Assembly: GCF_004010195.1 (NCBI RefSeq)
Contig: NC_057718.1
Coordinates: forward strand, 75,151,859-75,215,858
Length of the DNA stretch: 64,000 nt
Origin: Chiloscyllium plagiosum
Taxonomy: Eukaryota
Direction: 5' to 3'
Below are positions 2,505 to 44,674 of the stretch, piece after piece. The notes beneath the pieces are model-generated. The model was not told the DNA's origin. It saw only the letters and a list, made by a program, of their open reading frames with translations, and did not search any database. The translations under genes were made by a program, and so were the position numbers. Numbering within the stretch: the stretch's first letter is position 1; each line of letters starts with the position of its first letter.

Positions 2505-2870
2505 TTAGAATGATGCTTTCAATAGGAAGTGTTGCTGAACAAAGAGACCTTGGAGTGCAGGTTCATAGCTCTTTGACAGTGGAGTCGCAGGTAGGTATGA
2601 TAGTAAAGAAGGCGTTTGGTATGTTTTCTTTATTGGTCACAGTATTGAGTATAGGTGTTGAGAGGTCACGTTGCAGCTGTACAGGATATTGGTTAGCTCA
2701 ATTTTGGAATATTGCATGCAAATCTGGTCTCCTTACTATCAGAAAGATGGTATGAAACTTGAAAGGGTTCAGAAAATATTTACAAGAATGTTGCCAGGGT
2801 TGGAGGATTTGAGCTATAGGGCGAGGCTGAACAGGTTGGGGCTATTTTCCATGGAGCATCAGAGGCTGAG
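2505..2870 (+). mobile_element. CR1 LINE ORF2 3' fragment
   Basis: QRDLGVQV...LEYCMQIWSPY...LERVQKIFTRMLPGLEDLSYRARL; truncated by the Tx1 fragment. Confidence 0.85.
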
Positions 2871-3186
2871 GTGTCCACCAACACCCTGGAGTTGTTCAGG
2901 GAGAGGTGGGTGTCGCAGGGAGTGGAGTGCATTATTTCTCCCTCCAACTCTATTTTGATTTAGTCCCTACCCTCCCTTTCACTGTTTGATCACACAGCAT
3001 TGCCCTTTGATGTGAAGGGCACTGCTTGTCACTGGCCACTTGGGTGGTTTCTTTTCTTCCTGGTGGTGAAATTGAATAAAGACTCGTGCACCTTGTGTCT
3101 TACACCTGCACACACACAACATGGGTGTGGGAGAATAAATAAGCACTACCGCAGTTAGGCAGTAGTGTGGGGAAAGAAAAAAAAAA
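2871..3186 (+). mobile_element. Tx1 family A, 5'-truncated copy (ORF2 end, 3'UTR, polyA)
   Basis: Aligns to 9363-9693; AATAAA, terminal hairpin and A-tail. Confidence 0.9.
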
Positions 3187-3285
3187 TAGGATTGTCAAAC
3201 ATCCTCACACTCAGAGCTGGCTCTTGAGGGAGCTGGATCAGTGTCAAGGACTCTCCTTGTTTGTATCAAGAGGGGGGGGACTGAT
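3184..3285 (+). repeat. Gypsy LTR-like segment starting at the TATA-box A-run
   Basis: agagctggctcttgagggagctggatcagtgtcaaggactctccttgt aligns to the reverse complement of 25681-25760. Confidence 0.8.
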
Positions 3286-3656
3286 TCTGAACTAGCTGGC
3301 CCACAGATAATGTATGAGGAGAGGAGAGGGGGAAGGGGAAGGGGAAAGGGGAAAGGGGAAAGGGAAAAGGGAAAAAATCGAATCGAACCCTGGGCCTGCT
3401 TCTTGTGCTGCAGACTGGGCCTTGCCCACAACTGTCCCAACCGCTGCTGCCACCTGAGGCCTATCTCCACTGCCGGTCCTTGAGACCTCGCCTGAACCTG
3501 CCTCTGCTATTGCTGCTTGGGACCTGCCTCACTACTGCTGCCTGGGACTTGCCTTGGGCCCCTCCCAAGACCTCCACTGCTGCTGTGGGGCCCCACCTGG
3601 ATGTAGACTACAGCTGTTTCCTGGGGCCTACCTCCACCAGTATCCATCAGCACAGC

Positions 3657-5938
3657 ATGGCGAGCCCCAAGACCGCGGGCCCCAGTCGCACCCATGCTGG
3701 GGTAGCCGCTGCCTTAGGCTCAGCTGCTTCAGCCCCGGCTGCAACCCTGACCCCCTTCATGCACCTGACTAAACGCCTGGGGGTCAAGGCCTACCCCCAC
3801 CCGAACATGACTACTGAAGCCTGCAGTCAGGCCATGGCTAGTGTGGTCGGCCCATGGCCATCGTCGCTGCAGCCAGAATGTATGGGTAGGCCGTATTTTC
3901 CCTCCAGACCAAGGAGGCGGTCCACCTGGCCGTGGAGAGGAGGCTCATTGTGGGCAGTACACACCTACCCGTCGACCCTTTGGAGGTCACAGCCCAGAGG
4001 GTTGTGATCTCCAATGTCCCGCCCTTCATTGCCAGTGAGGTCCTTCTCCCCCACCTCAACATCTTGGGGGAAATCCGGTCGGGTGTCCAACCGCCCCTGC
4101 TCGGTCTCAAGGACCCTGCCCTCCGGCATATTTACTCCTTCTGACACCAGGTGTTTATTTGTCTGGCCCGGGAGGAGGTCATCTAGGACTCATTTACCTT
4201 CCTCCATGAGGGTGCGGCCTACCGTGTCTTCTGGACGGCGGACGGCATGCGGTGCCACCTGTGCCGTGAGGTGGGGCACATAAGAAAGAACTGCCCCACC
4301 CAGAAGGCTGCCCAACCCACGTCAACAGCTGTGGGTGGCACTGCCACACCCACTCCCCCTCCCCCAAAGTCAACACCACAAGCCCTGGCAACAGGGGCTA
4401 AGCCGGAGGCTTCCAGTGCCTTGGCCTCTGGCAGGAAGGGGGGGTGAGCATCCGGCCGGACAGAAGGCTCAAAAGAAGACACATCATGCCAAGCCTGCCC
4501 CCGTGGAGACAACCACATCACCTTCCCCAAAAATGGACCCTCGACCTGCCCCACCCTGGCATGACAATGCCCCTGCGGCCATGTCAGCGTTGTCCCGGCG
4601 CAGGAACCCTGACCCCCAACCCTCCATATCCATGCCTGATCCCTGCCCTGCTGCACCTACTGACCCCATGCCCAACCCCCGCCCCTTTACAGAACCCCCT
4701 GGGGCACCACTGCCTGATCCTGGCCCTTCAACACCTGGCTCATGGGTCCCTGAGTCCAGGCCCTGCCCCACCCAGCTAGACCCGTGCACTGACCTTGGGG
4801 AACCTGCCGCTGAGCTCCATCCAGCAGCAGCTGTGTCTCTAGGCCCTGGGCAGGAAACTGGACCCCTACCCCGCTTACCATCACCTGATAAACCAGGGGC
4901 AAGACAGGAAGTGACACAGCTGGCTCTCCCGACCCTGGTCACGTCCCCTGCCTTCCCCCAGCCAATCGTTTTCTGTCAAAAGCTGGGGGGAGGAGCCTCA
5001 GGCCCCATGACCATCAGGGCTGGTGGGGAGAGGAGAGCATTCCCCATGGGCACTGCCTCCTCGGGGAAGAGGCGCCGTCTCCTGGAGGGAGAGGACTTCC
5101 CTGTGGCCAGCTGAAGACGGTACCCCTCACACGTGGTGCACCCGTGACACCTCTCGCCTGTCTCGCATCGCGGCCTGATCCACCTGGAGCCCCGGGAGTC
5201 ACAGCAGAATCGCCTGGTGCCCCCATACCACCGGCCCCTTGGGACGAGCCTGACGGTGTGGGTCACAAGTTTGATAAATTTAATACCGCTGGATCATCGA
5301 ACGGTGGAGGGGAGGAAGGTGTTATCCTCGCTCCTCCCTCCCAGACTGTTTTTCTGGGGGCCTTGGCCCTGGGGGAAGACCATTTCCCCGAGGAGCCAGG
5401 TGTCCCGGTGTCGGGAGGGGAGCGGGGCCCTGAGCCTCTGCCACCCGACGACCCGAACTCGGGGCATTCTGGGAAGGGGTGCACTAAAGAAGTTACCGCT
5501 GGTGACCCTGGGGGTGAGGTCGCCGGGGGTTTGAGGCCAGTTGGCAGTGCCGGACCAGCCCCCACTCTCACGGTGGGGGAGGGGTCGGTGACCGAGGGCG
5601 ACTTTCCGGAGGAGGGTACAGGATCAGTGGTGGACACCGGGGACAACACGGACTCCGTCTCCAGCGAGGTTTTTGAGTCCCAGGTGCCCCACACCGATCT
5701 CCCCCTCATCCCCATTGAGGAACTCCAGGAATTTGTCGAGGAAACTCTGAGTCACCGGAATAGAGCCCAACTGGCGCACGACCGCTGGAGCTCCTTTGAG
5801 AGTAGACACTGGTCGGCCCACGCTGCTCGCCAGGTGCCTGTGCTCGACGTGAGCGAGCGAAAGTGAGTCAGGAACTTCCTGGGGGCGCTCCTGCTGAGGG
5901 CGAGGGACTTCTGTGCCCCTCCCTCGTCCTCCCAGTAA
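3657..5938 (+). pseudogene. Tx1 ORF1 (gag-like, zinc knuckle), frameshifted
   Basis: MASPKT...LTKRLGVKAYPHP, RVVISNVPPFI, RCHLCREVGHIRKNCP (about 4250-4295), long Pro-rich tail; several frameshifts and stops. Confidence 0.85.
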
Positions 5939-5988
5939 ATGTATAGAGTTTGTAACTGTACTGGTGGTGGTTGCACAGTTCTGCTGAC

Positions 5989-8900
5989 ATGAAGACAACT
6001 ATAGCCAGCCTCAACGTCAAAGGCAGCAGGGAGTCTCAGCGCAGATTCCAGACCCTCTCGGTCCTTCGGGATGGGAGGTATGCGGTGTGCTTCCTGCAAA
6101 GAACCCACACTACCCCGGGAGATGAAACCACCTGGCTCCTGGAGTGGCAAGGAGGGGTCTACATGAGTCACCTCACCCGAAGATCTGGCGGGGTGGCTAT
6201 CCTGTTGGCCCCACATTTTCAAGCGGAGATCTTGGGGGTCAGGGAGCCTGTGCCAGGCCGTTTGCTTAACTTGACGGTTCGGCTGGGGGGCGCGGTGCTT
6301 CACTTCGTGAACGTCTATGCTCCCCTGGCCGGGCCGAGGCAAGTGAGCTTCTATGGAGAAATGTCCGCTCATCTCGCCTCCATCGATAAGAGCCAGTGCA
6401 TCGTCCTCGGGGGACAGGGACCACGTTGGTGCCTGGACTGGTTGGGCGTCGGGGAGGAGGTTGGGGACTTGGTCAAGTCCTTCGACCTGGTGGACGCCTG
6501 GCGGAATCTCCATCCTGATTCCATCGCCTGGAGGCCTGGAGTCGGAGCGTCCAGAATTGATCGCCTGTACGTTTTGCGGGCGTATGCCTCCTGTTTTCCA
6601 ACGGCCTCCAAAGCAGCAGGTGTCGTGCACGGACCATCACCTGGTGTGGGCGGAACTCCTTCCGTTCGGCGCCAGGCTCGGCTCCGCGTACTGGCACTTT
6701 AACAACCTGCTGCTGGAGGACGAGCAGTTCCGGGACTCATTTCATCATTTCTGGGCCGACTGGAGAAGGAAATGGGGAAGCTTCCCCTCCCTGAGGCTTG
6801 GTGGGACATAGGCAAGGCTCATGTCCACGTTTTCTGTCAGGAGTATGTGAGCGGGTCGACAAAGAGGCAGAAATCCAGGATTGAGGAATTGGAGACCGGC
6901 TCTCGGGGGGCAAAACCCCGGGGCTGGACGGGCTGACTGTGGAGTTCTTCTGGGCGTTCTGGGACGTCCTGGGGAGCGACAACACACAGGTCCTGGGGGA
7001 GTGTCTAAATGCTGGAGAGCTGCCCCTTTTTTGGTGCAGGGCGGTCATCGTCCTGCTGCCGAAGAAGGGGGACCTTTGTTCTTTGAAGAACTGGCGTCCG
7101 GTCTCCCTCCTCAGCACGGATTACAAAATCTTTGCCAGGGTGTTGTATTCTCTCCTGGCCTCCGTGCTAGCCCACATGATTCACCCGGACCAGTCCTACA
7201 CGGCCCCGGGCCGGAGGATACACGACAACGTCCACCTGGTCCCGGACCTGATCCATTTCTGTCGACGGGCTGGTCTGCCGAGCGCCTTCCTGTCTCTCGA
7301 CCAGGAGAAGGCGTTCGACAGGGTCGATCACGAGTACCTGCTCGGGACTCTGCGGGCATTCGGGTTCGGGATGTAGTTCATCGCCCGGATCCAACTTTTG
7401 TACGCCGCCGCAGAGTGTCTGGTTAAAGTTAACGGGTCCCTGACGGCGCCCCTTCGCTTCGGGAGAGGAGTGCGTCAAGGCTGCCCCCTGTACGGCCAGC
7501 TGTATTCCCTGTGCGTGGAACCTTTCCTGGGCCTCTTGCGGAGGAGGTTGTCGGGGCTGGTTCTGCGCGGCATGGGCACGGGGGTGGTCCTCTCGGTCTA
7601 CGCCGATGACGTGCTCCTCACTTTCACCGACCCGGCTGACCTGACGTGCTCCTCACTTTCACCGACCCGGCTGACCTGGGGAGGATGTGCGAGTGCCAGG
7701 CCGTGTATCGGCGGCGTCTTCTGCCAGAATCAACTGGGCCAAGTGTTCCGGACTACTGGTCGGTCCGTGGCGGGTGGACTCCCTGCCGGAGGAGTTACGG
7801 GGGTTCAGCTGGAGTACCACCCATCTCCTCTACCTGGGGGTCTACCTCAGCCCGGCTGAGGAATCCTGGCCGGCCAACTGGCAGGAGCTGGAGGCCAAAG
7901 TCTCGGCTCGCCTAGGCCGCTGGACAGGACTGCTCCGAGTGCTATCTTACAGGAGTCGAGTGCTGGTCATAAACCAGCTGGTGGCCGCCATGCTGTGGTA
8001 CCGGCTGGTCACTTTGGTCCCTCCTCCTGGCTTTGTCGCTGACATCCAGAGAACGTTGGTCGACTTCTTCTGGGACAAAAACATGCACTGGGTCGCCGCG
8101 CAGGTTCTGAGTCTCCCTATCGCGGAGGGCGGTCAGTCGCTGGTGTGCGTCCGCACCCAGGTAACGACGTTCCGCCTTCAGACCTTGCGGCGATACCTTT
8201 ACGTCGAGCCTCCTCCTAGGTGGTGCGCCCTGGCGACGTATTTTTTCCGCCAGGTGCGTAACCTCAACTACGACACGCAGCTCCTGTTCGTCGACTGTGA
8301 CGGTTTGGAGGTCGCCCTCAAGACGCTGCCTGTCTTTTACCAGGACCTGATCACTGTCTGGAACATGGTCGAATCGCGTCGCGCCTACCCTCCGGCTGGA
8401 GTAGCGGCTGTCGTCAGGGAGCCGTTGCTCAGGAATCCGCACCTCCGTACTCGCGGGTTCGAGTGGCTGTCGGAGGGGAGGGCCGTGGCGGTGAGGGTGA
8501 CCCGGGTCGGGGACGTACTGGGGGCCGGGGGCCTGGGCTGGACGCTGCCGCAGGACATAGCGAGCAGGGCAGCGGTAGAGGTCCGGTACATGGCCACTGT
8601 CATCCGACGCCTCAAAACGGCGGTGCTCGGACCCGACGTAGTGCACCAGTTGGAGGACGCTCAGGTGTGCGGTGGGATCCCGTCCGTGCTCACCCCAGCC
8701 CGGACGGAATTTCACATTGGCCCCAAGGTCCCGTATTTCCCGCGAGAGCCTGTGCCCCACAACCTGAGCCGCCTCCGGAGTTTTAGTTTAGTCCCTTTTA
8801 AGGACATAAAAAGGAGGGCCCTGTATCGACTGCTGCTGCACACTGTCCACCTCTTCTTCCCCAGCCACTGTCCGGACACATCTTGGCATACCCATTTACC

Positions 8901-9456
8901 ACTGGGCGGTGGGGATCCCCAGTGGAGGGCTCTCTATGCGGGAGTCCTCCTCCTTTCTCTCGGGGATCTGGGGTGGAGGGTGCTGCACGCAGCAGTCCCC
9001 TGCAACCCCAGATTGCGGTGGTTCACGGACTCCCAGTCCAACTGCTTGTTCTGTGGCGCTGTGGAGTCCGTGGACCACGTGTATATTGGGTCTGGGCGTT
9101 TGCACTCCCTTTTTGATTTCCTCAAAAACCTACCTCTCTGTTTTTGGTTGCATTTCAGTCCCACGCTCCTGATCTTCGGGCACCCGGTACGGAGGAAGGA
9201 GGGCAGGTCTGAAGACCTCCTCGTGGGTCTGCTCCTGGGCCTGGCCAAACTGGCAATAAACACATCCAGGCAGCGGGCCGTGGAGGGGGTCGTTAGGGCC
9301 GACTGCCTGCCCCTCTTCCGTGGTTACGTTAGGGCCCGGGTGTCCTTGGAGAAGGAGCACGCGGTGTCGACCAACACCCTGGAGTTGTTCAGGGAGAGGT
9401 GGGCGCCGCAGGGAGTGGAGTGCATTATTTCTCCCTCCAACTCTATTTTGATTTAA
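5989..9456 (+). pseudogene. Tx1 ORF2 (APE endonuclease + reverse transcriptase), disrupted
   Basis: MKTTIASLNVKG, SRIDRLY, NWRPVSLLSTDYKIF, LDQEKAFDRVDH, GVRQGCPL, YADD, CLFCGAVESVDH. Apparent deletion near 6900, stop at 7374, 35-bp tandem duplication at 7607-7676. Confidence 0.92.
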
Positions 9457-9736
9457 TCCTTGCCCTCCCCTTCGCTCTTTGATCACACAGCATTGCCCTT
9501 TGATGTGAAGGGCACTGCTTGTCACTGGCCACCCGAGTGTTTTCCTAACTTCCTGGTGGTGGAAATTGAATAAAGATTTGTGCACCTTGTGTCTCTCACT
9601 GTGTCTCACACCTGCACACACACAACATGGGTGCTGGGGAAAATATAAGCACTACCGCAGTTCAGCGGCAGTGTGGGTGTTTTAAAAAAAAAATCAACAG
9701 GACTGTCAGTGGAAAGAAAACAAATTATAAAATGGA

Positions 9737-10066
9737 ATGTCTGGAGAAAGAGCATGCAGTGTTCACCAAAACCCTTGAGCTGTTCAGGGACATGTGGACA
9801 CCGCAGGGAGTGGAGTGTATGATTTCCCCCTCCAACTCTATTTGATTTAATCCCTGCCCCCCCCCCCCCGGTCACTGTTTGATCATGCAGCATTGCCCCC
9901 TAAGAAGGGCACTGCTTGTCAGTGGCTACTTGGGTGTTTCCTTTCTTCTTGGTGGTGGAAATTGAATAAAGATTAGTACACCTTGTGTCTCTCACTGTGT
10001 TTCACACTTGCACACACACAACATGGCTGCTAAGAAGGAAAAAAGATAAAAGGAAGGAAGAAAAAA
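9737..10066 (+). mobile_element. Tx1 family A, older 5'-truncated copy
   Basis: Aligns to 9345-9640; flanked by aaaatggaatgtc (about 9729-9741) and aaaatggagtgtc (10064-10076). Confidence 0.85.
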
Positions 10067-10181
10067 ATGGAGTGTCAGAGATACTGCCACTGACAGTTGA
10101 CACGGACTGAGGCAGTACTAAAAGTCAAGGACTATTCATTTGTAAATAAGACGGGATAGTGTCTGCTATGGAGTCATTTCA
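10064..10181 (+). repeat. 3' half of a Gypsy LTR (TATA region to ...atttCA)
   Basis: ggagtgtcagagatactgc...gtcaaggact...tgtaaataa...gggata...ctatggagtcatttca aligns to the reverse complement of 25628-25760. Confidence 0.75.
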
Positions 10182-12003: not shown

Positions 12004-15000
12004 ATAAGGTATAGGAGCAGACATTACACCATTCAGCCCATCAAGTCTGCTCCACCGGTTAATCATGACTGATATGTTTCTCCCACTTCCTCCCTGTAAC
12101 CCTTGATCATCTTAATACTCAAGATCCTATCTATCTCAGTCTTAAATGTAGTCAATGACCTGGCCTCCACAGCCTTCTGTGGCAATGAATTCCATAGATT
12201 CACCACTCTCTGGCTGAAGTTTCTCCTTGTCTCCATTCTAAAAAGTCTTCCCTTCCCTCCATTTTTTACAGAGTGGTGAGGACAGGGCTGCATTGAAGGG
12301 TAAGTTATTGTTTTTTAAGTGGGTGAGATCTAAACCTGAGACCTTACACCATAGGCTCTCCCTCCCACCACTTCCTCTAACCTTAATAAGAGTCTGAAAA
12401 GCCGGTAAGTTCTTCAGTTTTTTTTTCTCTTCTTTGTTTAGTCCTATGTGGGCTTTCACATTAGTGGGATATGACTGATAGGGCAGTTGCATGTTCCTCC
12501 TGCAGTATGTGGCAGGTGAGAGACATGACACATGTCTTCACTGGCTACATTTGCGGGAAGTGCTCCCAACTCCAGCTCCTCAAAAACTGAGTTAGGGATC
12601 TGGAGCTGGATGAACTGAGGATCATCCGGGAGGCTGTGGGGAAAATTGAGAGGATGTACAAGGAGGTAGTCACTCCTCAGACATAGGATAAGGACGGCTA
12701 GGTTACAGTCAAGGGGAAGAAAGGGAGCCGACAGACAAAGCAGGGATTCCCTGTCTCTGTTCCCCTCAGCAATAAGTATACCATTTTGGATACTGCTGGT
12801 GGGGACGGCCTACCAGGGAAAACCATAGTTGTCAGGTCTCTGGCACTGAGGCTCAGAAGGGAAGGGGGGAGAATAGAAAAGTACTAGTGGTAGGGGACTC
12901 AATAGTTAGATGGATTGATAGGAGATTTCGTGGTCAGGAACGGGACTCCTGGAAGGTATGTTGCCTCCCTGGTGCCAGGGTCTGGGATGTCGCCGATCGG
13001 GTTTACAGGATTCTGAAGGGGGAAGGTGAACAGCTAGAAATTGTGGTACATATTGGCACCAATGATATAGCCAAGAAAGGGACTGAGGATCTGAAAGTGA
13101 CCACAGACAGCTAGGTTGGAAGCTGAAGAGCAAGATGAGTAATGTTCTCAGGTTTGTTATCAGTGCCACAGGGTGAGGAACAGTCAGCGAGTGCAGCTTA
13201 ACACATGGCTGCGAGGCTGGTGTAGGAGGGAGAGCTTCAGATACCTAGACCATTGGGTTACCTTCTGGGGAAGGTGGGATCTGTACATGAAGGACAGATT
13301 GCACCTGAACTGGAGGGGCACAAATGTCCTGGGTGGGAGATTTACTCGTGTGGTTCAGGAGGGTTTAAATTAGTTTGGCAGGGGGGTGGGAATCAGAGCC
13401 ACATATCTGAGAGGGGGGTAGTTAGATATGGGGAAGTAACAGGATGTAATGAATCTATCGGGAAGGTTTTTCATGTGATGAAACAAAGGGATAAGGTGTG
13501 TCTGCTTTAACGCAAGGAGTGTCAGAAATAAGAGTGACGAACTTAGAGGATGGATCAATACTTGGGACTATGATGTTGTGGCCAGAACAGAGAAGTAGGA
13601 TTTACAGGGGCAGGAATGGTTGCTAGATGTTCTAGGGTTAGGGAGAGGTGGGAAAGATGTGGGGGTATAGCATTGCTAATCAGAGAGTGCATCACAGTTA
13701 CAGAAACAAAGGGTGTTGAGGAAGGTTTGTCAACTGAGTCAGGATGGGTGGAAGTTAGGAACAGCAAGGGAGCAGCCACCTCATTGGGGGTTTTCTACAG
13801 ACCCCTAACAGCAGTATGGAGATTGAAGATTTCATCGGCCAGCAGATTTTGGAAAAATGCAGATGTAGCAGGGTTGTTGTTATGGGTGACTTCAACTTTC
13901 CCAATATTGATTGGAACCTCCTTAGTGCAGATGGTTTGGATGGAGCTGTTTTTGTCAGGTATGTTCAGGTGGGTTTCCTTACTCAGTATGTAGACAGACC
14001 AACGAGGGGAGAGGCCATTTTGGAATTGATGCTCAGCAATGAGCCAGGACAGGCGTCAGATCTCGCGGGTGGAGAACATTTTGGTGACAATGACCACAAC
14101 TGCCTTACATTTACCATAGCCATGGAGAGGGAAAGGAGCAGTTACTATGGCAAGATATTTAATTGGGGAAAAGGAAATTATGACGCTATCTGACAGGAAT
14201 TGGGAAATATAGACTGGGAGCAATTGTTCCACAGAAAGGGCAAAACAGACATGTGGAAACTGTTTAAGGAACAGTTGTTGCGAATGATGCATAAATTTGT
14301 TCCTCTGAGACAGGTAAAAAGGGATAAGGTTAAGGAGTCTTGAATAATGAGAACAGAGGAGCTTCTTGTCAACAGGAAGAAGGCAGCTTACGTAAGGTGG
14401 AGGAAGCAAGGATCTAGCACAGCGCTAGAGGATTACAGGCCTACTAGAAAGGAGTTCAAAAATGGACTGAGGAGATCCATGAGGGGCGTGAAAAAGGCTT
14501 AGCAGGAAGGATTAGGGAGAACCCAAAGGCATTTTATTCACATGTGAGGGATAAGAGAATGATCAGGGAGAAGGTAGGGTGGGTCAGGGATAATGTAGAG
14601 AACTTGTACGTGGAGTCTGAGCAGATAGGGGAAGCCCTAAATGAGTTTTTTGCTTCAGGTTTCACTATGGAAAGGGACCTTGTTATGATTGAGAACTTTG
14701 AGAAGCCAGGAAACAGGCTTGAACAGATTAAGATTGAGGAGGTTGATGTGCTGGAAATCTTGGCAAACATTAAGATTGGTAAACCCCAGGCCCAGACTAG
14801 ATTTAGCCAAGGTTGCTCTGAGAAGCAAGAAAGGAGGTTGCTAAGCCGTTGGCGAACATATTTGCTTCCTCACTCTCCACTGGAGTCATACCGGAGGATT
14901 GGAGGGAGGTGAATGTTGTTCCTCTTTTCATGAAGGGTGATAGAGAAATCCCTGGTAATTACAGACCAGTCAGTCTTATGTCTGTGGTCAGTAAGATTTT

Positions 15001-16660
15001 GGAAAGAATTTTGATTGAGAGGATTTATGACTATTTGGAAAAGCATAGCGTGATTAAAGGCAGTCAACATGGCTTTTTGGGGGGCGGGTCATGCCTCATA
15101 TATCTTATTGAGTTCTTTGAGGAGGTGACGAGGCAGGTTGATGAAGGTCAGGCAATGGATATGGTGTATATGGCCTTTAGCAAGGCTTTTGATAAGGTTC
15201 CCCATGATAGGCTAATTCATAAAGTCAGGAGGTATGGCATACAGGGAGATCTGGCTCTCTGGATTCAGAATTGGTTGGCTGACAGAAGGCAGGGAGTGAT
15301 TGTAGATAGAAAATATTCTGCCTGGAGGTCAGTGGTGAGTGATTTCCCACAGGGCTCTGTTCTTGGGCCTCTGCTCTTTGTAGTTTTAGTAAATGACTTG
15401 GATGAGGAGGTTGAGGTGTGGGTTAGTAAATTTGCCGATGACACAAAGGTTGGAGGTGCCATTGATAGTATTGAGGGCTATTGCAGGCTGCAGCGTGACA
15501 TAGACAGGATGCAGAGCTGGGCTGAGAGATGGCAGATGGAATTCAACTTGGATAAATGCGAAGTGATGCATTTTGGAAGGTCAAAATTGAATGCTGAATA
15601 TAGGATTAAAGACAGGATTCTTGGCAGTGTGGAGAAACAGAGGGATCTTGGTGTTCATGTGCATAGATCCCTCAAAGTTGCCACCCAAGTGGATAGGGTT
15701 GTTAAGAAATCATACAGTGTTTTGGCTTTCATCAACGGGGGATCGGGTTTAAGAGTCGCGAAGTTTTGCTGCAGCTCTACAAAACCCTAGTGAGACCACA
15801 CTTGGAATATTGTGTCCAATTCTGGCCGCCTATTATAGGAAAGATGCAGATGCTTATGGAGAGGGAGCAAAGAAGGTTTACCAGGATGCTGCCTGGACTG
15901 GAGGGTTTGTCTTATGAAGTGAGGTTGACTAAGCTTGGACTTTTCTCTCTGGAGAGAAGGAGGAAGAGAGGTGACCTGATCGAGGTGTACAAGGTAATGA
16001 GAAGCATAGATAAAATCGATAGCCAGAGACTTTTTGCCAGGGCAGGATTGACTGCTACGAGTGGTCATAGTTTTAAGGTGTTAGGAGGAAGGTATCAAGG
16101 AGATGTTGGAGGTAGGTTCTTTATGCCGAGTTGTGAATGCATAGAATGCGTTGCCAGCGGTGGTGGTGGAAGCAGAGTCCTTAGGGACATTTAAGCGACT
16201 GCTGGACATGCACATAGACAGCAGTGAGTTGAGGTGTGCATAGGTTAGGTTGTTTTATTTTATATTATGACTAATCCTTGGCACAACATCATGGGCCGAA
16301 GGGCCTGTTCTTGTGCTGTACTTTTCTATGTTCTATGTACTCAAAGGCTGTGCCTTTGGCTCCTTGTCTCTCCTACCAATGGAAACATCTTCTCAACATC
16401 TACTTTGTTCAGGCCATTCAGTATTCTGCATGTTTCAAATACACCTCCCCTCATCCTTCTGAACTCCAATGAGTATAGACTCAGAGTCCTTAAAATGTTC
16501 CTCATATGTTAAGCTTTTCATTCCTGGGACAATTCTTGTGAACTTCCTCTGAACACACTCCAAGGCCTGAGATATGGGACCCAAACCTGTGCACAATACT
16601 TCAAAAATGTGGTCTGACCAGAGTCTTATAGAGCTTCCGAAGTACATGGACAAAATTGTA
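12004..16660 (-). mobile_element. Older CR1 3' fragment split in two (12004-12255, 16340-16660) by a younger CR1
   Basis: FSQRVVNLWNSLPQKAVEA on the left part, ALECVQRKFTRIVPGMKSLTYEE on the right part. Confidence 0.7.
12262..16337 (+). mobile_element. Near full-length CR1 (HER1-type) LINE: ORF1 zinc finger + SGNH esterase, ORF2 EN-RT; disrupted
   Basis: ORF1 from about 12471: CSSC..CGKC, VVGDSIVR, VHIGTND, DRLHLN. ORF2: MGDFNFPNIDW, NYRPVSL, KAFDKVPH, PQGSVLGP, KFADDTK. (TTCTATG)n tail. Confidence 0.92.
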
Positions 16661-17283: not shown

Positions 17284-20200
17284 AGTCATTGTTTTTACCT
17301 AGTTGATTTTAACCCTACTGCGAATCCTCTTGCAAGGATGCCTGCCTTGAAGAAGTTCTCATCCTCTCTCTACAAGAATCTCAGGGAGTCCCTCTCCCAC
17401 TGCAACTCCCAGGTCATTTCTTCTGCCCTGAAGCTCTTCAACCATGTCGTGAAACAAACTCGCTACCACAGCCACATTTGCTTCCTCAGTGCCTGCCTCC
17501 GTAACCAACTCATCCCGCAAGGACTCCGGACCACCTTTAAACCAGCAGAGTTTGGACCCGAACAGGACAAAGTGTACAGACTACAGATTCAAAAACACCA
17601 GCAACGGTTCTCCTTCAAGCTCCTCCGCTCCACGCTTGCAGCAATGCGCTGGCACCTAACCTCTCTACAGTCAGCCCTGCCTCAGCTGAGGGCCACACTC
17701 TCTCAGAATTGCAAAGGACCCACTCTGTACTACATCCTCAGGAGAATTCATACTCTCAACAAACAGTATTTCAATTTCATCTCAAACATCAAAAACTGTA
17801 AGTACAACAAACTTTTATCTACCCACCTCCATAACCAGCAGTCCTCAAACATTCCAGAAGATTCCCCTGGCCTCTGGAACTGCTCGGACGCCATTAGCCT
17901 ACTGCCATGTCTGCCACCACTTCCACCCCCACCAACGCCACTCACTTGCATTCTGCTGACACGCCCCCCCCACAGATCCCACTGTCACCATTCCTGGCCC
18001 CCAGAACCCTGAGGAGAACACCATTCCTGGTCATGACTCCACCTCCATTCTCCCCACCATCACACCCACTCCAGTTACCGGCTCCGCCCCCACTCCCAGC
18101 TCCACACCCACACCAGATCCCAGCTCCCAGCCCGGCCGAGTTTTCACCATCCCTCCAGACCTCCCTTTCACCGAGGACAAACGATCAGTCCTCAGCAAAG
18201 GACTCACCTTCATCCCCCTCCGTCCACGCATCAATGAATTTAATACACGTCGTGACATCGAACACTTCTTCCGCTGCCTCTGCCTCCGCCTCCGAGCTTA
18301 CTTTCACAATCAGGACTCCCGCCCACCTTCCAAGGACCCCTTTGCCCACCTCCAACACATTGCATCCACCTGGACACCCCGCGCTGGCCTATTACCTGCC
18401 CTCGACCTCTTCATTTCCAACTGCCGCCGGGACATTAACCACCCCCCACCAGCGCCACATGGTCTGTGCAGGGTCCTGCAAGAGTTACAGATATTATGGT
18501 CTCTGGTCTTTGGATAAGGTGAAACCCTCACTCAAATGAATTGCAAGTGGTAGCAGCTTACCCCCTGTAATTTGGCAAGTTGGCATCTCTCCGACTATGT
18601 GAGAATACGTTCTATTAATATTTCCCAAAGGGAAGGTTGCTGCTATTTTTGTTTTGGAAATTCTAATGGCACAAGAATAACTTGCTTTGATGGACAATGT
18701 AATTCTCTCTTTCTCTTTCTGTTAATGCTACAGCTATATCTCTCCTGTTGGATTGTTGCATAATCTTGTGTACTCGGAGTTCCAAATAAATTACCTGCCA
18801 TGTCTAGAGAACACCTAGCCTGTGCATGTCTGGGGTAATTTAGTATGGCCAAACCATCTGACTTGCACATCTTTGGACTGTGGGAGGAAACTGATGCAGG
18901 CCCGGGGAGAACGTGCTAGCAACAGAAAAGGAACTAACACAAGTTAAGAAAGACATTTAAAAGTAGAGAATTGCAGTTCATCAAGACATCACAATGTACA
19001 CCCCACAGCCAGTGCAGTACATCTGGCGTGTAGCAGACATGCTGAAATTGTGAGAGATGTGATAAGATGAAATGTGATTTAGCGGCACCATTCCCCACCT
19101 CTTCCTCCGCTACATTGTTGACTGCATTGGCGCCACCTCGTGCTCCCGCGGGGAGGTTGAGCAATTCATCAACTTCACCAACACATTCCACCATGACCTT
19201 AAGTTTACCTGGACCATCTCTGACACCTCCCTCCCCTTCCTGGACCTCTCCATCTCCATTAATAATGACCGACTTGACACTGACATTTTTTACAAACCCA
19301 CCGACTCCCACAGCTACCTGGATTACACCTCTTCCCACTCTACCTCTTGCAAAAATGCCATCCCATATTCCCAATTCCTCCGCCTCCGCCGTATCTGCTC
19401 CCAGGAGGACCAGTTCCACCACAGAACACACCAGATGGCCTCCTTCTTTAGAGACCTCAATTTCCCTTCCCACATGGTTAAAGATGCCCTCCAACGCATC
19501 TTGTCCACATTCCGCACTTCCGCCCTCAGATCCCACCCTCCAACCGTAACAAGGACAGAACGCCCCTGGTGCTCACCTTCCACCCTACCAACCTTCGCAT
19601 AAACCAAATCATCCGCCGACATTTCAGCCACCTCCAAAAAGACCCCACCACCAGGGATATATTTCCCTCCCCACCCCTTTCCGCCTTCCGCAAAGACCGT
19701 ATCCTCCGTGACTACCTGGTCAGGTCCACGCTCCCCTACAACCCACCGTCCCATCCTGGTACCTTCCCCTGCCAGGAATTGCAAAACCTGTGCCCACACC
19801 TCCTCCCTCACCTCCATCCAAGGCCCTAAAAGAGCCTTCCACATCCATCAAAGTTTTACCTGCACATCCACTAATATCATTTATTGTATGCGTTGCTCCC
19901 GATGCGGTCTCATCTACATTGGGGAGACTGGACGCCTTCTAGCAGAGCGCTTTAGGGAACATCTCCGGGACACCCGCACCAATCAACCATACTGCCCTGT
20001 GGCCCAACATTTCAACTCCCCCTCCCACTCTGCCGAGGACATGGAGGTCCTGGGCCTCCTTCACCACCACTCCCTCACCACCAGACACCTGGAGGAAGAA
20101 CCGCCTCATCTTCTGCCTCGGAAAACTTCAACCCCAAGGTATCAATGTGGACTTCAAAAGTTTCCTCATTTCCCCTTCCCCCAGTTCCAAATTTACAGCT

Positions 20201-20488
20201 CAGCACTGTCCCCATGACTTGTCTGGACTTGTCCTACCTGCCTATCTTCTTTTCCACCTATCCACTCCCCCACTCAACTATTGTACTCTATGCTACTTTC
20301 TCCCCACCCCCACCCTCCTCTAGCTTATCTCTCCATCCTTCAGGCTGTCTGCCTTTATTCCTAATGAAGGGCTTTTGCCCGAAACGTTGATGTTACTGCT
20401 CCACAGATGCTGCCTGAACTGCTGTGCTCTTCCAGCACCACTAATCCAGAATCTGGTTTTCAGCATCTACAGTCATTGTTTTTAACCT
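17284..20488 (+). mobile_element. Penelope-like element family B (N-terminal region, RT, GIY-YIG, pLTR), disrupted
   Basis: ORF from 17338; SVLSKGLTF; RYI(V)D motif near 19110; IYCMRCSRCGLIYIGETGRLLAERFREH (GIY-YIG); agtcattgtttt at both ends. Confidence 0.9.
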
Positions 20489-24682: not shown

Positions 24683-25627
24683 TCTGAGAAATCTGAGAAA
24701 TCTGAGAACTCAGACCATATAATTCAAGATAGGAACACCTAACCAGAAAGGGATATGTATGGCTATATGTTCTCATCTCATTGAGGAGGCAGTGCTGTCA
24801 ATCGCATGACGATGAGAAACAGCCAAGACAATTGAGGATGGTTGTGACCTAATCCACCATCCTCCATCTCGCTTCCCTGCATCCCACACTCCTGTGATTT
24901 AAGAAATGCATATGGTACAAGGAGGCAGCTCTTGTTCCCAGTGTCCTTACCCACACAATTTCCCTCAATTGGCTCTCACATAATTTGGCCTTACCCTCCT
25001 GCTTTTCCTCTTCCAGAAAACCAGGCACCTGACAGGCAATGGTTCAGAACAGCAAAGCCCAAGAGGAGCAAGGGAACTGATTTGGTAAAACACTGCCATT
25101 TGTTCCCATACTTGCAGCCATCACTCCAGATACTTGGACATGTTTGAGACAGTATAAACATAGAGTATGCACATGCTGAGCCACTTGATATCAGCAGCCT
25201 GCAGTCAGGGCAGATGCCCGTTCCCTGAGGTTACACCCGTTTTCTATTGTAGCAGACTCAGATGATGAACGGGATAGTGTGGCCTTGAGAGAAAGACTGA
25301 AAGATATATACTAACATATGCTTGGTGCATTGGCAGGCCTGCATAAAGATCTTCTTCTCAATGTTAAGGAGCATGGAGTCTGTCACCAATTTGGCATAGG
25401 CCTCTATGCAGTGCTTGATATTCATCCAGATCCAGTATGATGCTACATCTAGTAAGTGGTGCCTCAGGTTTCATTTCAGCATGGACAGAAAGGTCCCACT
25501 ATCTCAGTACTACATTAAAAACTTAAATTTGGGTCATGCAATCCAAGCTTGGGGATGTCATGTCCGCCAGTGTCATATTCAAAGGAGCTGGCAGACTTTC
25601 ATGACAATGCAGCAACCTGTTAGGAGG

Positions 25628-26917
25628 GAAAATAACTCCATAGAGGTCGGTATCCCATAACCAAGTCATCATTTATTTACACAAGGAGGGTCATTGACAC
25701 TGATCCAGCTTCCTCAGAGTCAGCTCTCAGAGTGAGCAGAATCTCTGATACTCCTGTTTATATCTCCCTGATTGAAGCAAATTAAGAACCCCTATCAGAG
25801 AATTCAGATTCTATGAGATCCACTTTGCTGACCTTGTTATAATCATTGTTTCCCTTTCCCTCTGATTCTGAGGACATCGGCCTCCTCCTGCAGTGTTTTC
25901 GAACTGGGTCAGGTTCCTCCAAATCTGCTTGTGATGTGGGTACCATGTAATGCACAGTAACTCACCTGTTGTGCCCCGAGGGTCTCGGAAGAAAATCATT
26001 GTCCTCTTAAGATGGCAAAGGCATCAAGGCGATGATGTCTGCCATGTCCATCTCAGTTTCCAAGATATCTTCAGTGGTTGATGGAATAGGAGAACCCACA
26101 GGTTCTAGAACAGTTGGAAAGGCAGTTGAGGAGCTGGGCACATTTAGCTCACACATCATTTGCGAGTTTGTAACTTCCACACAGTCCACATGCTTGTTCA
26201 GGACCGTTGCTTCTACCCAAACTTTATATGCCACTGGACCTGACCTAGCATCAACCATGCCTCTTACCTATTCAGGACCATTCCGGTGGCTCCTACACCA
26301 AACTTTGTCCCCTGAAGTAAACTGTCTCTCTCATTTTGTGGAGTCTTGTGCCCAGCACTTGCATTCCTGAAGCTGTTTCCTGAACCTACCCCTTAGATCC
26401 AGGAAGATCGGATTTAACTTGGTGCAGAGTATTCTACCCATGAGAAATTCTGCTGGAGCTCTCAATAGTTGCATGAGGGGTGGTCCTATAAATCAAATAG
26501 AAACTAAGACAGTTTGGTTTCTAGTGAAGCTGTAGGCTGTTTCTTTAAGTCTGCCATCAAGGTTTGGATTGCTCTTTCTGCCAGACCATTGGATGACAGT
26601 ATGGAGCTGTCCTAATATGTCAAATACCATTTAACTTTAGGAAATACTCAAATTCTCTCAGTATCTTAAGGTTTAATCCAAAGTCACATGCCTCTGCTAG
26701 TCATCTTTATCTAAGGGCTGGTATCCCATCACAAAGTCCCTTTGTTCATTCAAGGAATGTTCTTGACTCTGATCCAGCTACCTCAGAACCAGCTCTCAGA
26801 GTGAACATGACCTCTGATACTCCCATTTATATCTGTCAGCCAGGGGAACTGTCAGACATAAGAAGGGTACTCATATTCTATGAGGTCTATCCGTCTGACC
26901 TCATTACAATCACTACA
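25628..26917 (-). mobile_element. Internally deleted Gypsy-type LTR element
   Basis: Two about 210-220 bp direct repeats (26705-26917, starting TGTAGTG on the minus strand; 25628-25850). PBS-like tagcagagg (tRNA-iMet complement) near 26691-26699, PPT agagggaaaggga at 25851-25863. Integrase remnants SSNGLAERAIQTL and GPVAYKV...KHVD. Confidence 0.8.
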
Positions 26918-39441: not shown

Positions 39442-40463
39442 CTCTTGTGTTAACAGAATCAATAAAAGCATTGATATTTTCTCATCCATTCTTTATTTCA
39501 ACTCAAAATCAAATTATGCCTGCCATTTTATAATTAGAAAATTATCCCAAATTTAAAAATTAGTTTTATTGTTTGTTTTGTTAATGTTCAATCTATATTC
39601 CCTCAGTGGAAATGTTTTTTGAGAGTCTCGAAACAAACTAAACTGATTTTTCATTTTGAAAATGTGATTATCCCCTTAAACATCAGATACATTTTCCTGA
39701 GTACTTAAAATTGCAACTCATTGATTTATTTTATTAATTCCAATTCCAAAAACATTTATGCACTGGCTTGGTTTTGAATTGTGATTTATATCAGAGACAG
39801 AGGGCTTGCGATAAATTTAGTTCAAACCGTTATCATGCTGTGCTTTAATTTTGAAAACAGTTGGATTTCTTGACACATCATCAGTAGTCAAGCAGACCTA
39901 AAAACTACCACTCCTTGTTAACAAAAACCATAAAGGATGGAATCTACCTCTCCAAGGAAGCAGCAGGGATGTAGTGGCAGGAGAAGGTAATCGGGCAGGT
40001 AGGCATCACTACTGCAAAATACCAACACAAGAATTAATTTCTGGCAGGAAGGGTCAAGCTCAATTACCCTGCCCACTTCCAATTGAAGCCCGCAAGTGAT
40101 GAATTAATGACCATTTAAGGTCCTCATCCCACCTAGCTGCATTGACTTTATGTGCAGATGGGATAAGAAACTTACAGTCTATCTGACTGTTAACCAAGTG
40201 CTAGAAAACTGTCAGTTGTGGGCAGGTATCTCAGTCTCCATTAATTTGTCTAAGATTGAGGGACTGGACCCATTGTAGGTCAGTTGCATCTGAGAATGAC
40301 TCCCTTGTGTTGCTTCCAAACCCTCTGCACTCCTCTTCCTGCAAACATTCAACACCAGAAACTCTACTGAAACAGCACCTACCTTCTCCAATAGTGAATC
40401 ATCATGCTCAAATGCAGGGCCTATTGTCCTGGCAATCACAGCCTCTGTCATGGCATTGCTGTA

Positions 40464-40807
40464 CTTTTTCGCGGAAGAGGGGCAGGCAGTTGGTCCATGG
40501 CTCACTGCCTGGACCTTCTCCTGTTTATATATTTTTTTTCTTTTTTATCCCCTTTAACCCCCACACTACCACCTAAGTGCGGTAGTGCTTATTTTATCCC
40601 CAGCGCCCACCTCTCCCTGAACAACTCCAGGGTGTTGGTCGACGCCGCGTGCTCCTTCTCCAAGGACACCCGGGCTCTAACGTAACCGCGGAAGAGGGGC
40701 AGGCAGTCGGCCCTAACGACCCCCTCCACGGCCCGCTGCCTGGACCTGTTGATGGCCAGTTTGGCCAGGCCCAGGAGCAGACCCACGAGGAGGTCTTCAG
40801 ACCTGCC
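40464..40807 (-). mobile_element. Tx1 family A short rearranged copy, 15-bp TSD
   Basis: Near-identical to 9202-9405 plus the 3' terminus; TSD catggcattgctgta at 40449-40463 and 40808-40822. Confidence 0.9.
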
Positions 40808-43724
40808 CATGGCATTGCTGTATTCTGGAGTTGCTAGTGTCTGATTGGCCAGCAGCTTCAGGTGGGTTGGACTTTCTGTTCAAGAGTTCTAATTTCGATA
40901 GAAAGCCTACCAACAACCAATCGGCTGCCTGATTGCTAGATGATCCTTCTGGAACTACTCTCGCTTTCAGGCTTAGTCCAAAAATGGAAGACTCCTAAGA
41001 CACTGCTTAGGAACTCAATGAGTCCATTTGTCCAATCATATTTGTAGAGTCCAACTGTTAACAAACGAGATTTTCTGCCAATATGTTAATAGAATCAGAA
41101 TCACCTTGAATGTCCCAAATTCTAATTTACATATTATAATTTAAAAACTTCCACTTCCTAATACATTTCAACTTTGTTGTTGCAACTATGTGCTAATATA
41201 AACCATCACTCTCCTCCTGTCATTCATTGTTTGATTGCTGACCACCATTGATGACAGGATGTTGCACGATGTGGGATGGTTAGTCCAGAGTTATTTGCTT
41301 CTTAGTAGTGGTTAGATAAATCTGAGTGTTCTGCATTGGCACTACAGAGGGATTTCTATGAGTTTGGGGTCATGTAGAGGCTAAGTTCGGTGAGGGCAGT
41401 AGGTTTCCTTTAAAAAGACATTCGTGAACCAGATGAAGTTTTACAATTTCAGATTTATCTAACTAACTAGATTTAGATTGCACAATTTAAGACACACTTT
41501 AAAATACATTGTTTGTCATTCAAATTAGTTCTTTCTCATGTTAAGACTATCATCAACTGTATTCATCTCCTCAATAAACTCAATTGTGCATACTACGTCA
41601 GAGCAGAATCTTGCATTTCTATTTATTAGCATTGCTGTACTTTGCTAAAACTAACGAATAAATATTTGAACTTTACACAATTCTTCCAACTTTGACAGTT
41701 TTGGGCTAGAATGCCAATGAAATCGAGTCATGGATGGTTGAAGGTACAAAATTAATATATTGATCACTATGTCCCATATTTTTAGTGACATCTTGTCTAA
41801 CTGATGGCTAAATGTGCGATCTAAAACTGCAATTCATCTTTCCAGCACCAGTTTCTGGAACATAAGCATGAGAAATGTGAAGTGAATGAGTTTTAATGGG
41901 CAAAACTGTAGAAGTAATATTGCAGTGTTGGAATTGTACATTATGGTAGATCATATGTTATAGTGAGATTAATATAGAATACAGCTGCATTGTTGCTTTA
42001 TGAGCTGGATTCTTAATATTTCATTTCCAAGGCCTGCCTCATGTGTTATAAAACTCTACAGATCCTCTGTGATGAAACACGTTTGTTTTCCTGTATAAAA
42101 TTAGTTACATAATGAAACTTTTTTTTATGATTGTTGTTTAACTTAATTGTTACTGCTGCTGAGCAACAATCCTGTCAAAAGGTGGGGATATCTTCAACCA
42201 GCACCTACTTATGTAATGATCAATGTTTAATCTGGCTCAGTGATTTCATTTAGTTGGTGTCATTGCTGAACTCAAACTTTAGCTTGGTGTCAAGCTAAAA
42301 TCAAATGCTCATTCTAAATGATACGAAGATTTTCAGTGCCGCAATAAAGGCAATTATTTGCTGGAACATTTACACCAAGATTTGTCTGGTAGCGTTTAAC
42401 TGAAGCCAGCACTGAGGGAGTTACCCCTACCATGTCATTGAGCCCTGCTAATAGTTTTAATGGACTGCAGGGTGGTAGTTCAACTTCAATATTCAGACTA
42501 AAGGGATTTATAGCCCACAGGATCTTAACAGCAGTTTTTGTTTGTTTCTTCATTGCATATGGGCACACTGGACAATGGTTTATTGGCCATCCCAATTGCC
42601 CTGGAAAAGCTGGTTTTAGCTGCCTTCCTCAACCACTGCAGAATTTGAAGTGTAGACACATGCACAATGTTGTCACAAAAGGCATTCCAGGATTTTGATC
42701 CACTTACAGTTAAGGAACAGCAAATTTATTTTTCCAAAATATACTTCATACATAGTAGATGTCTTTGTATTAATACATAGTCCCAAATGCAGTTCAATTT
42801 TGTACAGTAGTATGCCAAGGAAACAAACAAATGCTGGAGTTTAATTGTATCCAAACAAACCAAAGGCATCTCTTGCTTGAATCAGACTATACTTATATGC
42901 GTTCGAGGCATGAGGAGGGTCCAATAACTGAATGATCCCCCTTTAAACGTCAGCAGAAGGACCTCAGACAGTGGTCTTTCCCCATGGTGCATTGACAACA
43001 AGCTGCCCAAGTTTTAGTGCATCCACTAGCACATAATCCTAGGCCTTGGAATGTGCTAGTCTGCAACACTCAGTCAAGATCAACTCATTGCTCTGGAAGA
43101 CCAAAAAGTTTCGGACAGACCAAAGAGTGCCATTCACCAAGTTGATGGTCCTCCAGGCTCAGTCGATGTTTGCCTCAGATCTCCAGCATCTTCAGTCCTC
43201 ACTTTCTCCTAGCAGACGGTGATACAGACTGACAGGGTGTACAAGAAAGATCTTACAGGTAGTGCCTTTCTCCCCACCAGCCAAGTGATGTCTTGGTGCT
43301 TGTTGGAAAAATTCTGGTGATGAGACATTCTGCCCAGTGACTTTGACAGTCTGCTCAGGGAACCATGTGATAGGATCCACTGCTCCTTTTCCCTCTTGGT
43401 CTTGAGAATGCTATGTGCTGACCACTTCCTGAAGGACTGGTGCTCAGAGGTGTTTTCTCCATGAAGAACGGGTGATATGGAACGGTCCAAATATTTAGAG
43501 TGTTCTGCAGAAATGAGGCCAATTCCATCCTTAGCAACACTGGGGACAGACAGAACCTTAGTACGTAATGAAACTTGGTGTTTGCATACCAAGGGTTGTT
43601 GTGGTTCTGTTCGCCGAGCTGGGAATTTGTGTTGCAGACGTTTCGTCTCCTGTCTAGGTGACATCCTCAGTGCTTGGGAGCCTCCTGTGAAGCGCTTCTG
43701 CGATCTTTCCTCCGGCATTTGTAG

Positions 43725-44414
43725 NNNNNNNNNNNNNNNNNNNNNNNNNNNNNNNNNNNNNNNNNNNNNNNNNNNNNNNNNNNNNNNNNNNNNNNNNNNN
43801 NNNNNNNNNNNNNNNNNNNNNNNNNNNNNNNNNNNNNNNNNNNNNNNNNNNNNNNNNNNNNNNNNNNNNNNNNNNNNNNNNNNNNNNNNNNNNNNNNNNN
43901 NNNNNNNNNNNNNNNNNNNNNNNNNNNNNNNNNNNNNNNNNNNNNNNNNNNNNNNNNNNNNNNNNNNNNNNNNNNNNNNNNNNNNNNNNNNNNNNNNNNN
44001 NNNNNNNNNNNNNNNNNNNNNNNNNNNNNNNNNNNNNNNNNNNNNNNNNNNNNNNNNNNNNNNNNNNNNNNNNNNNNNNNNNNNNNNNNNNNNNNNNNNN
44101 NNNNNNNNNNNNNNNNNNNNNNNNNNNNNNNNNNNNNNNNNNNNNNNNNNNNNNNNNNNNNNNNNNNNNNNNNNNNNNNNNNNNNNNNNNNNNNNNNNNN
44201 NNNNNNNNNNNNNNNNNNNNNNNNNNNNNNNNNNNNNNNNNNNNNNNNNNNNNNNNNNNNNNNNNNNNNNNNNNNNNNNNNNNNNNNNNNNNNNNNNNNN
44301 NNNNNNNNNNNNNNNNNNNNNNNNNNNNNNNNNNNNNNNNNNNNNNNNNNNNNNNNNNNNNNNNNNNNNNNNNNNNNNNNNNNNNNNNNNNNNNNNNNNN
44401 NNNNNNNNNNNNNN
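43725..44414. other. Assembly gap
   Basis: N run. Confidence 1.
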
Positions 44415-44634
44415 GACAACACTACTATTATAGGACAAGCCAAATAGAGAACAGCCAGGGAATTCCTAGAGGCATGGCATTCATCCACAGATTCAATCAA
44501 TAAGCACATCGACCTGGTCCCAATATACCGACCACTGCAACGGACAGCTGGAACTGACAACCGGAAGCTGCAGATTCAAACCACTACAAATGCCGGAAGA
44601 AAGATCACAGAAGCGCTTCACAGGAGGCTCCCAA

Positions 44635-44674
44635 GCACTGAGGATGTCACCTAGACAGGGGACGAAACGTCTGC
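44635..44674 (+). ncRNA. Minimal type I hammerhead motif (family C); mirror copy at 43634-43673 (-)
   Basis: gca-CTGAGGA-tgtcacct-agac-aggggac-GAAA-cg-TC-tgc; predicted cleavage after C44671. Confidence 0.7.

Follow-up and report, generated by a model that had tools for sequence, protein, structure and literature searches.

A 64,000-nucleotide stretch of the genome of the shark Chiloscyllium plagiosum (NCBI RefSeq assembly GCF_004010195.1, contig NC_057718.1, positions 75,151,859 to 75,215,858 of the forward strand; hereafter the window) holds copies of a long interspersed nuclear element (LINE) family of the Tx1 clade beside sequence from a Gypsy long terminal repeat (LTR). The initial annotation of the window proposed that this family is a sequence-specific LINE targeting the TATA box of the LTR. 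Across the 3.56-Gb assembly, the targeting is real and genome-wide, preferential rather than strict, and of a known kind. We are close to certain of the preference for the LTR TATA box. That this Tx1L-like family used the Gypsy LTR as its preferred landing site and also borrowed its promoter is the reading that we favor, with moderate confidence.

The LTR TATA box as a preferred landing site

LTR positions are numbered on one natural 237-bp copy in L049 (L-numbers are labels of sampled genomic loci). The TATA box lies at 103-108 and the motif AAACAGGAGTGTC at 106-118, and an A that resembles an initiator follows at 132, which is 29 bases past the T of TATA; the TATA box and initiator labels are our assignments from consensus and spacing. 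By its features the target is classed as a Ty3/Gypsy LTR retrotransposon. Paired direct LTRs occur in L092, L094, L095, and L096, and the target pol has RT_RNaseH and RT_RNaseH_2 domains of the Ty3 type and K02A2.6-like homologs. These homologs carry the rve integrase domain, the sampled pol copies themselves not being intact. A structure search with the pol placed Ty3 reverse transcriptase (RT) among three matches, the top match being another polyprotein. In addition, 33 RNA reads have the repeat (R) region of the LTR running into an A stretch, which fits an LTR poly(A) site and is uninformative on the LINE. As a separate observation, an identical 181-bp stretch of LTR occurs in L201 and L228, which belong to one contig and are separated by 126 Mb; this reflects either a recent duplication or an assembly artifact.

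To view targeting from the LINE, we searched the genome with the 3' untranslated region (UTR) and with the end of open reading frame 2 (ORF2), scoring 40 of 2240 and 40 of 3383 candidates, respectively. Each search gave 30 loci, picked by likeness to the window copy and not by flank, and 58 remain without the window's own. The unique 3' (U3) half of the LTR lies directly upstream of the LINE at 21 of these 58 loci (18 scripted; L002, L008, and L101 by eye). The annotation had named the absence of any such copy as evidence against its proposal, and this outcome was not observed. At four more, R and the unique 5' (U5) region lie downstream, with U3 out of view. At least 14 loci are non-LTR sites with their own duplication of about 13 to 15 bp (9 scripted, 5 by eye), and the remaining 19 are unresolved or without duplication. 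The joint falls at LTR 113-119, just past the TATA box, in 25 of 27 cases placed by eye; the other two lie near 106 and 123. On-target duplications measure 13 to 17 bp and begin within the TATA box, so that the full U3 and TATA box are kept directly upstream. Duplications of at least 11 bp were found in 12 of 19 closed loci versus 23 of 342 cross-locus pairs. Insertion is in the sense orientation: of the 45 LTR pieces lying no more than 150 bp from a Tx1 unit, 44 point the same way as the unit.

A Tx1 family has been considered target specific when one sequence type makes up more than 20% of its flanks (PMC4494074); here the LTR accounts for 36% (21/58). Stringency of the Tx1L type, with nearly all copies at one site, is not seen, since at least 14 of the 58 loci lie elsewhere, and the strict sequence specificity of the initial proposal is not supported. 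The preference still exceeds what a simple sequence taste would give. Arbitrary sequence totaling 192 kb contains TAAAC 438 times, which scales to about 8 million sites genome-wide; set against about 11,700 LTRs (see below), a five-letter taste predicts 0.14% of insertions at LTRs. This random background is small, and its 20 stretches (192 kb) contain one partial LTR and no Tx1. Separately, L112, L144, and L208 have Tx1 joints within Tx1's own ORF1 region (window equivalent ~4950-5035).

Viewed from the LTR, the exact 22-mer spanning U3 and the TATA box occurs 1520 times in the genome. We took the first 40 sites in genome order (two identical), regardless of occupancy, and read about 150 bp at each. 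Six of the 40 LTRs carry the Tx1-like family right after the motif, one carries a second family, and three have other breaks; elsewhere in the 150-bp read, a stretch that leaves out U3 itself, the Tx1-like family was found in none of the 40. Because 10 of 77 U3-bearing copies retain the exact 22-mer, we estimate about 11,700 LTRs genome-wide, with wide error, of which 15%, or about 1,750, would be occupied. As a cross-check, the exact 3' motif occurs 6120 times; by eye, the first 100 matches fall into 57 clusters, or roughly 1.75 matches each. With the motif kept in 15/29 or 26/29 loci, this gives 3,900 to 6,800 clusters, so 26 to 45% would be on target.

Other elements were also seen at this site. 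A second retroposon family, whose 3' end differs and is T-rich, is joined to the TATA site in L045 (~1340-1500), L233, L015, L063-L067, and L143. Its L045 insert lacks a long A-tail and is flanked by a clean duplication that measures up to 17 bp, and no Tx1L-like coding sequence was found for this family in the sampled loci. In L231, an unrelated repeat, which we take to be a tRNA-derived short interspersed nuclear element (SINE), breaks the LTR directly after the TATA box.

In the window itself, the annotation had described four Tx1 3' ends followed by the same motif. These motifs are present at 3185-3197, 9696-9709, 10065-10080, and 40518-40531 (minus strand), as are the LTR motifs at 25743-25764 and 26812-26833 (minus) and the duplication-like pair 9726-9741/10065. 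Only the 9726/10065 junction, however, is a target site. The left copy of the local target duplication (9726..9741, plus) shares a rare ATGG variant with 10065, and the true downstream half of the target LTR, consisting of duplicated motif, R, and U5, follows at 10065..10181 (plus), reaching the LTR end as had been described, with 89 of 140 aligned columns matching a natural LTR copy. The motif at 9696..9709 (plus) most likely arrived with the RNA as a transduced 3' end, since it is unlike the local target variant and a further A-rich stretch comes after it; the layout is the same at non-LTR sites L006, L021, L026, and L029. The motif at 40518-40531, likewise RNA-carried, lies inside an off-target Tx1 insertion (40449..40822, minus), because a perfect 15-bp duplication (40808-40822/40449-40463) bounds this copy. 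At 3185, LTR homology is present, but it spans about 78 bp (3184-3262) rather than about 100 bp, and after 3262 the sequence passes into the conserved Tx1 leader and not into LTR U5; this junction is the element's own leader. No U3 half stands beside either Tx1 cluster of the window, where the sole U3 matches are two empty LTRs. With one of four window junctions at a target, the proof of targeting therefore rests on the other loci.

The LTR-derived leader, the piles, and the proposed mechanism

Near-full-length copies carry LTR sequence ahead of their 5' UTR, a feature that the initial annotation had overlooked. The R motif (LTR 167-180) occurs within 420 bp before the 5' UTR in 14 of 20 such copies versus 6 of 439 random pieces; of the other six, L129 shows a neighboring R motif, and this test detected neither motif in the remaining five. 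The window-type leader consists of LTR 106-180 and then an R match of a second LTR subfamily, both ending before the poly(A) signal. In the window copy, the first part (3185..3262, plus) contains the target motif and R of the main LTR subfamily (79% to LTR ~106-184) and ends ahead of the poly(A) signal; an equivalent block precedes other full-length copies. The second part (3276..3314, plus) is assigned to R of the second subfamily, again without the poly(A) signal. This assignment is based on the corresponding stretch of the L169 leader, which is 83 to 92% alike to R regions of L170, L133, L095, and L181 that continue to the poly(A) signal and LTR end.

A leader search recovered 29 loci. L189 runs seamlessly from U3 through TATA, initiator, R, and leader into ORF1. 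In L172 and L186, a seamless U3-TATA-initiator-R stretch leads into leader-only A-tailed inserts, followed by R-U5. Both flanks of the L172 insert carry two variants (LTR 124 and 132) that are found in none of 25 empty LTRs, indicating a duplication of about 30 bp that reaches the initiator, as expected if the end of the complementary DNA (cDNA) annealed to target R. Most leaders are preceded by an A-tail and pile remnants, and L195 has pile remnants inside the duplication at a non-LTR site, suggesting that transcripts also began upstream and read through.

Variant leader structures were seen as well. L168, L172, L174, L185, L186, and L195 contain leader-only A-tailed elements of 130 to 250 bp, made of LTR R pieces and a purine tract. 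They occupy the LTR site or lie elsewhere within a duplication of their own, and resemble SINE-like by-products. In a subfamily present in L128, L131-L135, L137, L138, and L144-L146, the leader opens with a second copy of the 3' UTR; this copy always meets a shortened R piece at one position (window equivalent 9545-9551), and the resulting layout is terminal-repeat-like. L130, L134, and L144 each hold two long copies in tandem.

Copies are also stacked in piles. A local version of the target duplication recurs between pile units at LTR sites (L020, L022, L103) and non-LTR sites (L009, L029, L107, L125), indicating that piles grew in place, and identical joints in L106 and L124 indicate that multi-unit RNAs were also exported. 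In 31 of the 49 loci with several units, pile units have 5' breaks no more than 2 bp apart (shuffling gave a mean of 3.6 such loci and a maximum of 9), and 82 of 319 pairs within piles share a 5' break versus 166 of 21,203 between piles. Same-break units are unlike in their 3' ends and tails, and their divergence (8%) approaches that seen between loci (9%), which led us to reject simple recent duplication of units. Both homology joining to a resident copy and repeated copying of one RNA would fit the repeated breaks. Rare variants are shared at 5.9% in same-break units versus 1.0% in unrelated loci, which may lean slightly toward re-use of one RNA. The first 30 bases of same-break units are 6.2% versus 8.0% diverged, a comparison that is biased by alignment starts and failed to separate the two. 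In L003, sequence resembling 5S rRNA lies between target duplication and Tx1 3' piece twice in one pile (~2380-2480 and ~3040-3140).

The site, orientation, and duplication length, the retained U3-TATA, the target-derived leader, the carried motifs and R fragments, the repeated breaks, and the piles can all be read in the DNA, and a mechanism may be proposed from them. The ORF2 protein would make a bottom-strand nick within the TATA box, guided by a loose preference for A-rich, TAAAC-like sequence. Read-through transcripts that terminate in the motif or in R could pair with the nicked LTR, raising the hit rate, and the new cDNA would join the displaced top strand by homology. With a full-length RNA, joining to R would yield a long duplication and a rebuilt promoter; alternatively, joining to the start of a resident copy would yield repeated 5' break points. 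U3 would then drive transcription, and upstream pile remnants would become a disposable leader. Taken by itself, promoter borrowing from the Gypsy LTR seems to us rather probable.

Several observations weigh against this scheme. Besides the off-target loci counted above, clear seamless U3-to-leader joints are few (3 of 29 leader loci) and occur in none of the 20 near-full-length stretches, in which pile remnants precede the leader. The pre-leader stretch of L174 and of L168 differs from the local downstream LTR half, so that the long duplication is not general and rests on L172. The excess of shared rare variants also fits re-use of one RNA. Finally, RNA reads were placed from four runs (of 24 runs screened, no RNA run held half of the query words). 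Over L168:1300-1790, reads of the one informative raw run do not pile up at any start site, and none falls on the unique leader part; 188 reads of run X21 were placed there, 152 of them below 90% alike and none at 1555-1605, and run X22 gave no reads.

A further step would make the scheme a closed loop, in which a promoter-less parasite cuts the TATA box, rebuilds the core promoter through its leader, aims in part through RNA-DNA pairing at both ends, swaps its leader on meeting a new LTR subfamily, and spawns short leader-only A-tailed elements that follow this route too. We put this forward tentatively, as possible and no stronger.

Three other explanations were weighed. The endonuclease alone might aim, as for Tx1L, leaving the R leader as a neutral read-through relic of a LINE with its own promoter. 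In vitro, nicking by the Tx1L enzyme is almost wholly confined to its target (PMC1950540), and the shark endonuclease region, taken from a better-preserved genomic copy, is 46% identical to that of Xenopus Tx1L. Off-target duplications in L098, L110, and L006 also begin with TAAAC-like or AAACAG-like sequence, whereas those in L011, L021, L026, and L125 have little in common beyond an A-rich start, and a leader retaining R pieces from two LTR subfamilies, both cut before the poly(A) signal, is awkward for a neutral relic. We consider this explanation rather unlikely.

It is still less likely that the LINE is attracted by active LTR promoters, whether because their DNA is open or because TATA-binding protein bends it, or is tethered there by a host factor. 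The cut does lie within the TATA box, and a second A-rich-tailed family joins there too (L045, L233, L015), but decayed TATA variants and non-LTR sites are re-hit with the local duplication repeated (L009, L029, L107, L125), and no off-target flank was recognized as a host promoter, although no dedicated test was made. That the motif is merely the element's own 3' end and the piles are DNA tandem duplications is highly improbable, and was rejected as a sole explanation: the motif is internal to the insert at window 40518 and in L006, L021, L026, and L029, and L106 and L124 have identical imported joints, but occupied LTRs, the many loci with U3 upstream and R-U5 downstream of one insert, local motif variants repeated within a pile (L020, L103, L022), and the divergence and unlike 3' ends and tails of same-break units run counter to it.

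The Tx1 family and other features of the window

Several lines of evidence assign the family to the Tx1 clade as a Tx1L-like member. For the C-terminal ORF2 half of the long window copy (7675-9453), Xenopus Tx1L is the best named protein match (45% over 97%); the nearest protein overall is a horn shark sequence (61 to 66%). No named Keno or crocodilian sequence was among the protein matches. A FastTree tree of 50 sequences, built on the endonuclease-plus-linker region and not on the RT, places the family in a clade of seven that contains Tx1L, with support of 0.999. ORF2 is predicted to encode an apurinic/apyrimidinic endonuclease (APE) and then an RT (Exo_endo_phos, E 1.5e-13, in the L132 copy; RVT_1 in the window copy). 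A CCHC zinc knuckle in ORF1 is a feature of the Tx1 clade; the L128 copy gives a weak zf-CCHC match (E 0.012, 16.2 bits versus a Pfam cut-off of 20.8). Tx1 copies at the sampled loci show A-tails, 5' truncation, and target duplications. The family is by now dead and decayed.

On the plus strand of the window, a 5'-truncated Tx1 3' end with A-tail (2870..3184; 86% to 9363-9694) has no U3 half nearby and is joined upstream to a repeat that we take to be a CR1-like LINE. It is followed by the leader described above, by a purine-rich tract and tandemly repeated 5' UTR that are also found in other full-length copies (3315..3656), and by ORF1, with frameshifts and stops and a putative CCHC knuckle near 4250-4300 (3657..5938, bounds from sequence). 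The broken ORF2 (5989..9456) lacks about 400 bp near 6895 that are present in other copies, and its RT region has a 35-bp tandem duplication (7605-7676). The long copy ends with its 3' UTR and A-tail (9457..9693), and a second 5'-truncated Tx1 3' end with A-tail lies at 9742..10064 (83% to 9347-9635).

On the minus strand, an empty Gypsy LTR (25627..25845) and a second empty LTR, broken within U3 (26716..26917), flank a pol remnant (26148..26563) that matches pol sequence from the element between paired LTRs in L095 (tblastn E 3e-34). Elsewhere, another RT frame (14822-15790; RVT_1, 22% to Tx1L) and a GIY-YIG frame (19603-20217) probably belong to CR1-like and Penelope-like repeats, respectively. 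Low-complexity AT-rich sequence at 43209-45026 has long open frames on both strands.

Known systems and significance

Tx1L of Xenopus laevis likewise lands at one site of another transposon, the DNA transposon Tx1D (PMC4494074, PMC1950540), and its endonuclease is reported to be stringent for its target (PMC1950540). In contrast, the shark family has an LTR core promoter as its target, aims loosely, and carries a target-derived leader.

The initial annotation knew of no description of such a target, but an LTR-element target is not new: Tx1-8_Crp and Tx1-4_AMi of crocodilians are described as favoring specific LTR retrotransposons, whose superfamily and site are not stated in the main text of the report (PMC4494074). 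The same report describes Tx1 families with U1 or U2 small nuclear RNA (snRNA) heads at their 5' ends, copies nested in one another, and transcription that may start in the flanking sequence (PMC4494074). By these descriptions, Tx1-8_Crp, Tx1-4_AMi, and Tx1-Mar/SINEU resemble the shark family in LTR preference, captured heads, nested piles, and proposed target-driven transcription; their heads, however, are U1 or U2 snRNA, whereas that of the shark family is target sequence. No TATA-box target, shark Tx1 target, or LTR-derived Tx1 leader is named in the literature searched, and Repbase, Dfam, or the supplements of PMC4494074 may hold them. Aiming at LTR elements by Tx1 is thus already known; what looks new, while unproven, is a variant feature, a target-derived leader that may be able to rebuild the promoter.

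The R2 element has another endonuclease class, and its target is a host RNA polymerase I gene. Like the proposed shark LINE, R2 is transcribed from its target, being co-transcribed with 28S ribosomal DNA, and this co-transcription is said to strengthen aiming (cited in PMC4494074). HeT-A of Drosophila also forms head-to-tail arrays, in which an upstream promoter buffers 5' erosion (PMC5537684). HeT-A extends chromosome ends and carries its promoter within its UTRs, whereas the promoter of the shark LINE would come from another element.

Most LINE insertions are left without the 5' promoter, and landing behind a TATA box would equip even truncated copies, while a target-derived leader would restore the borrowed promoter exactly. 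With thousands of copies, two LTR subfamilies, and both on- and off-target sites, the family offers a natural series for separating the shares of enzyme and RNA homology in the aiming of APE-type LINEs, and for learning how 5' ends are joined. With about 15% of LTRs severed from their R region, the insertions would also have affected the Gypsy host if they occurred while Gypsy was active.

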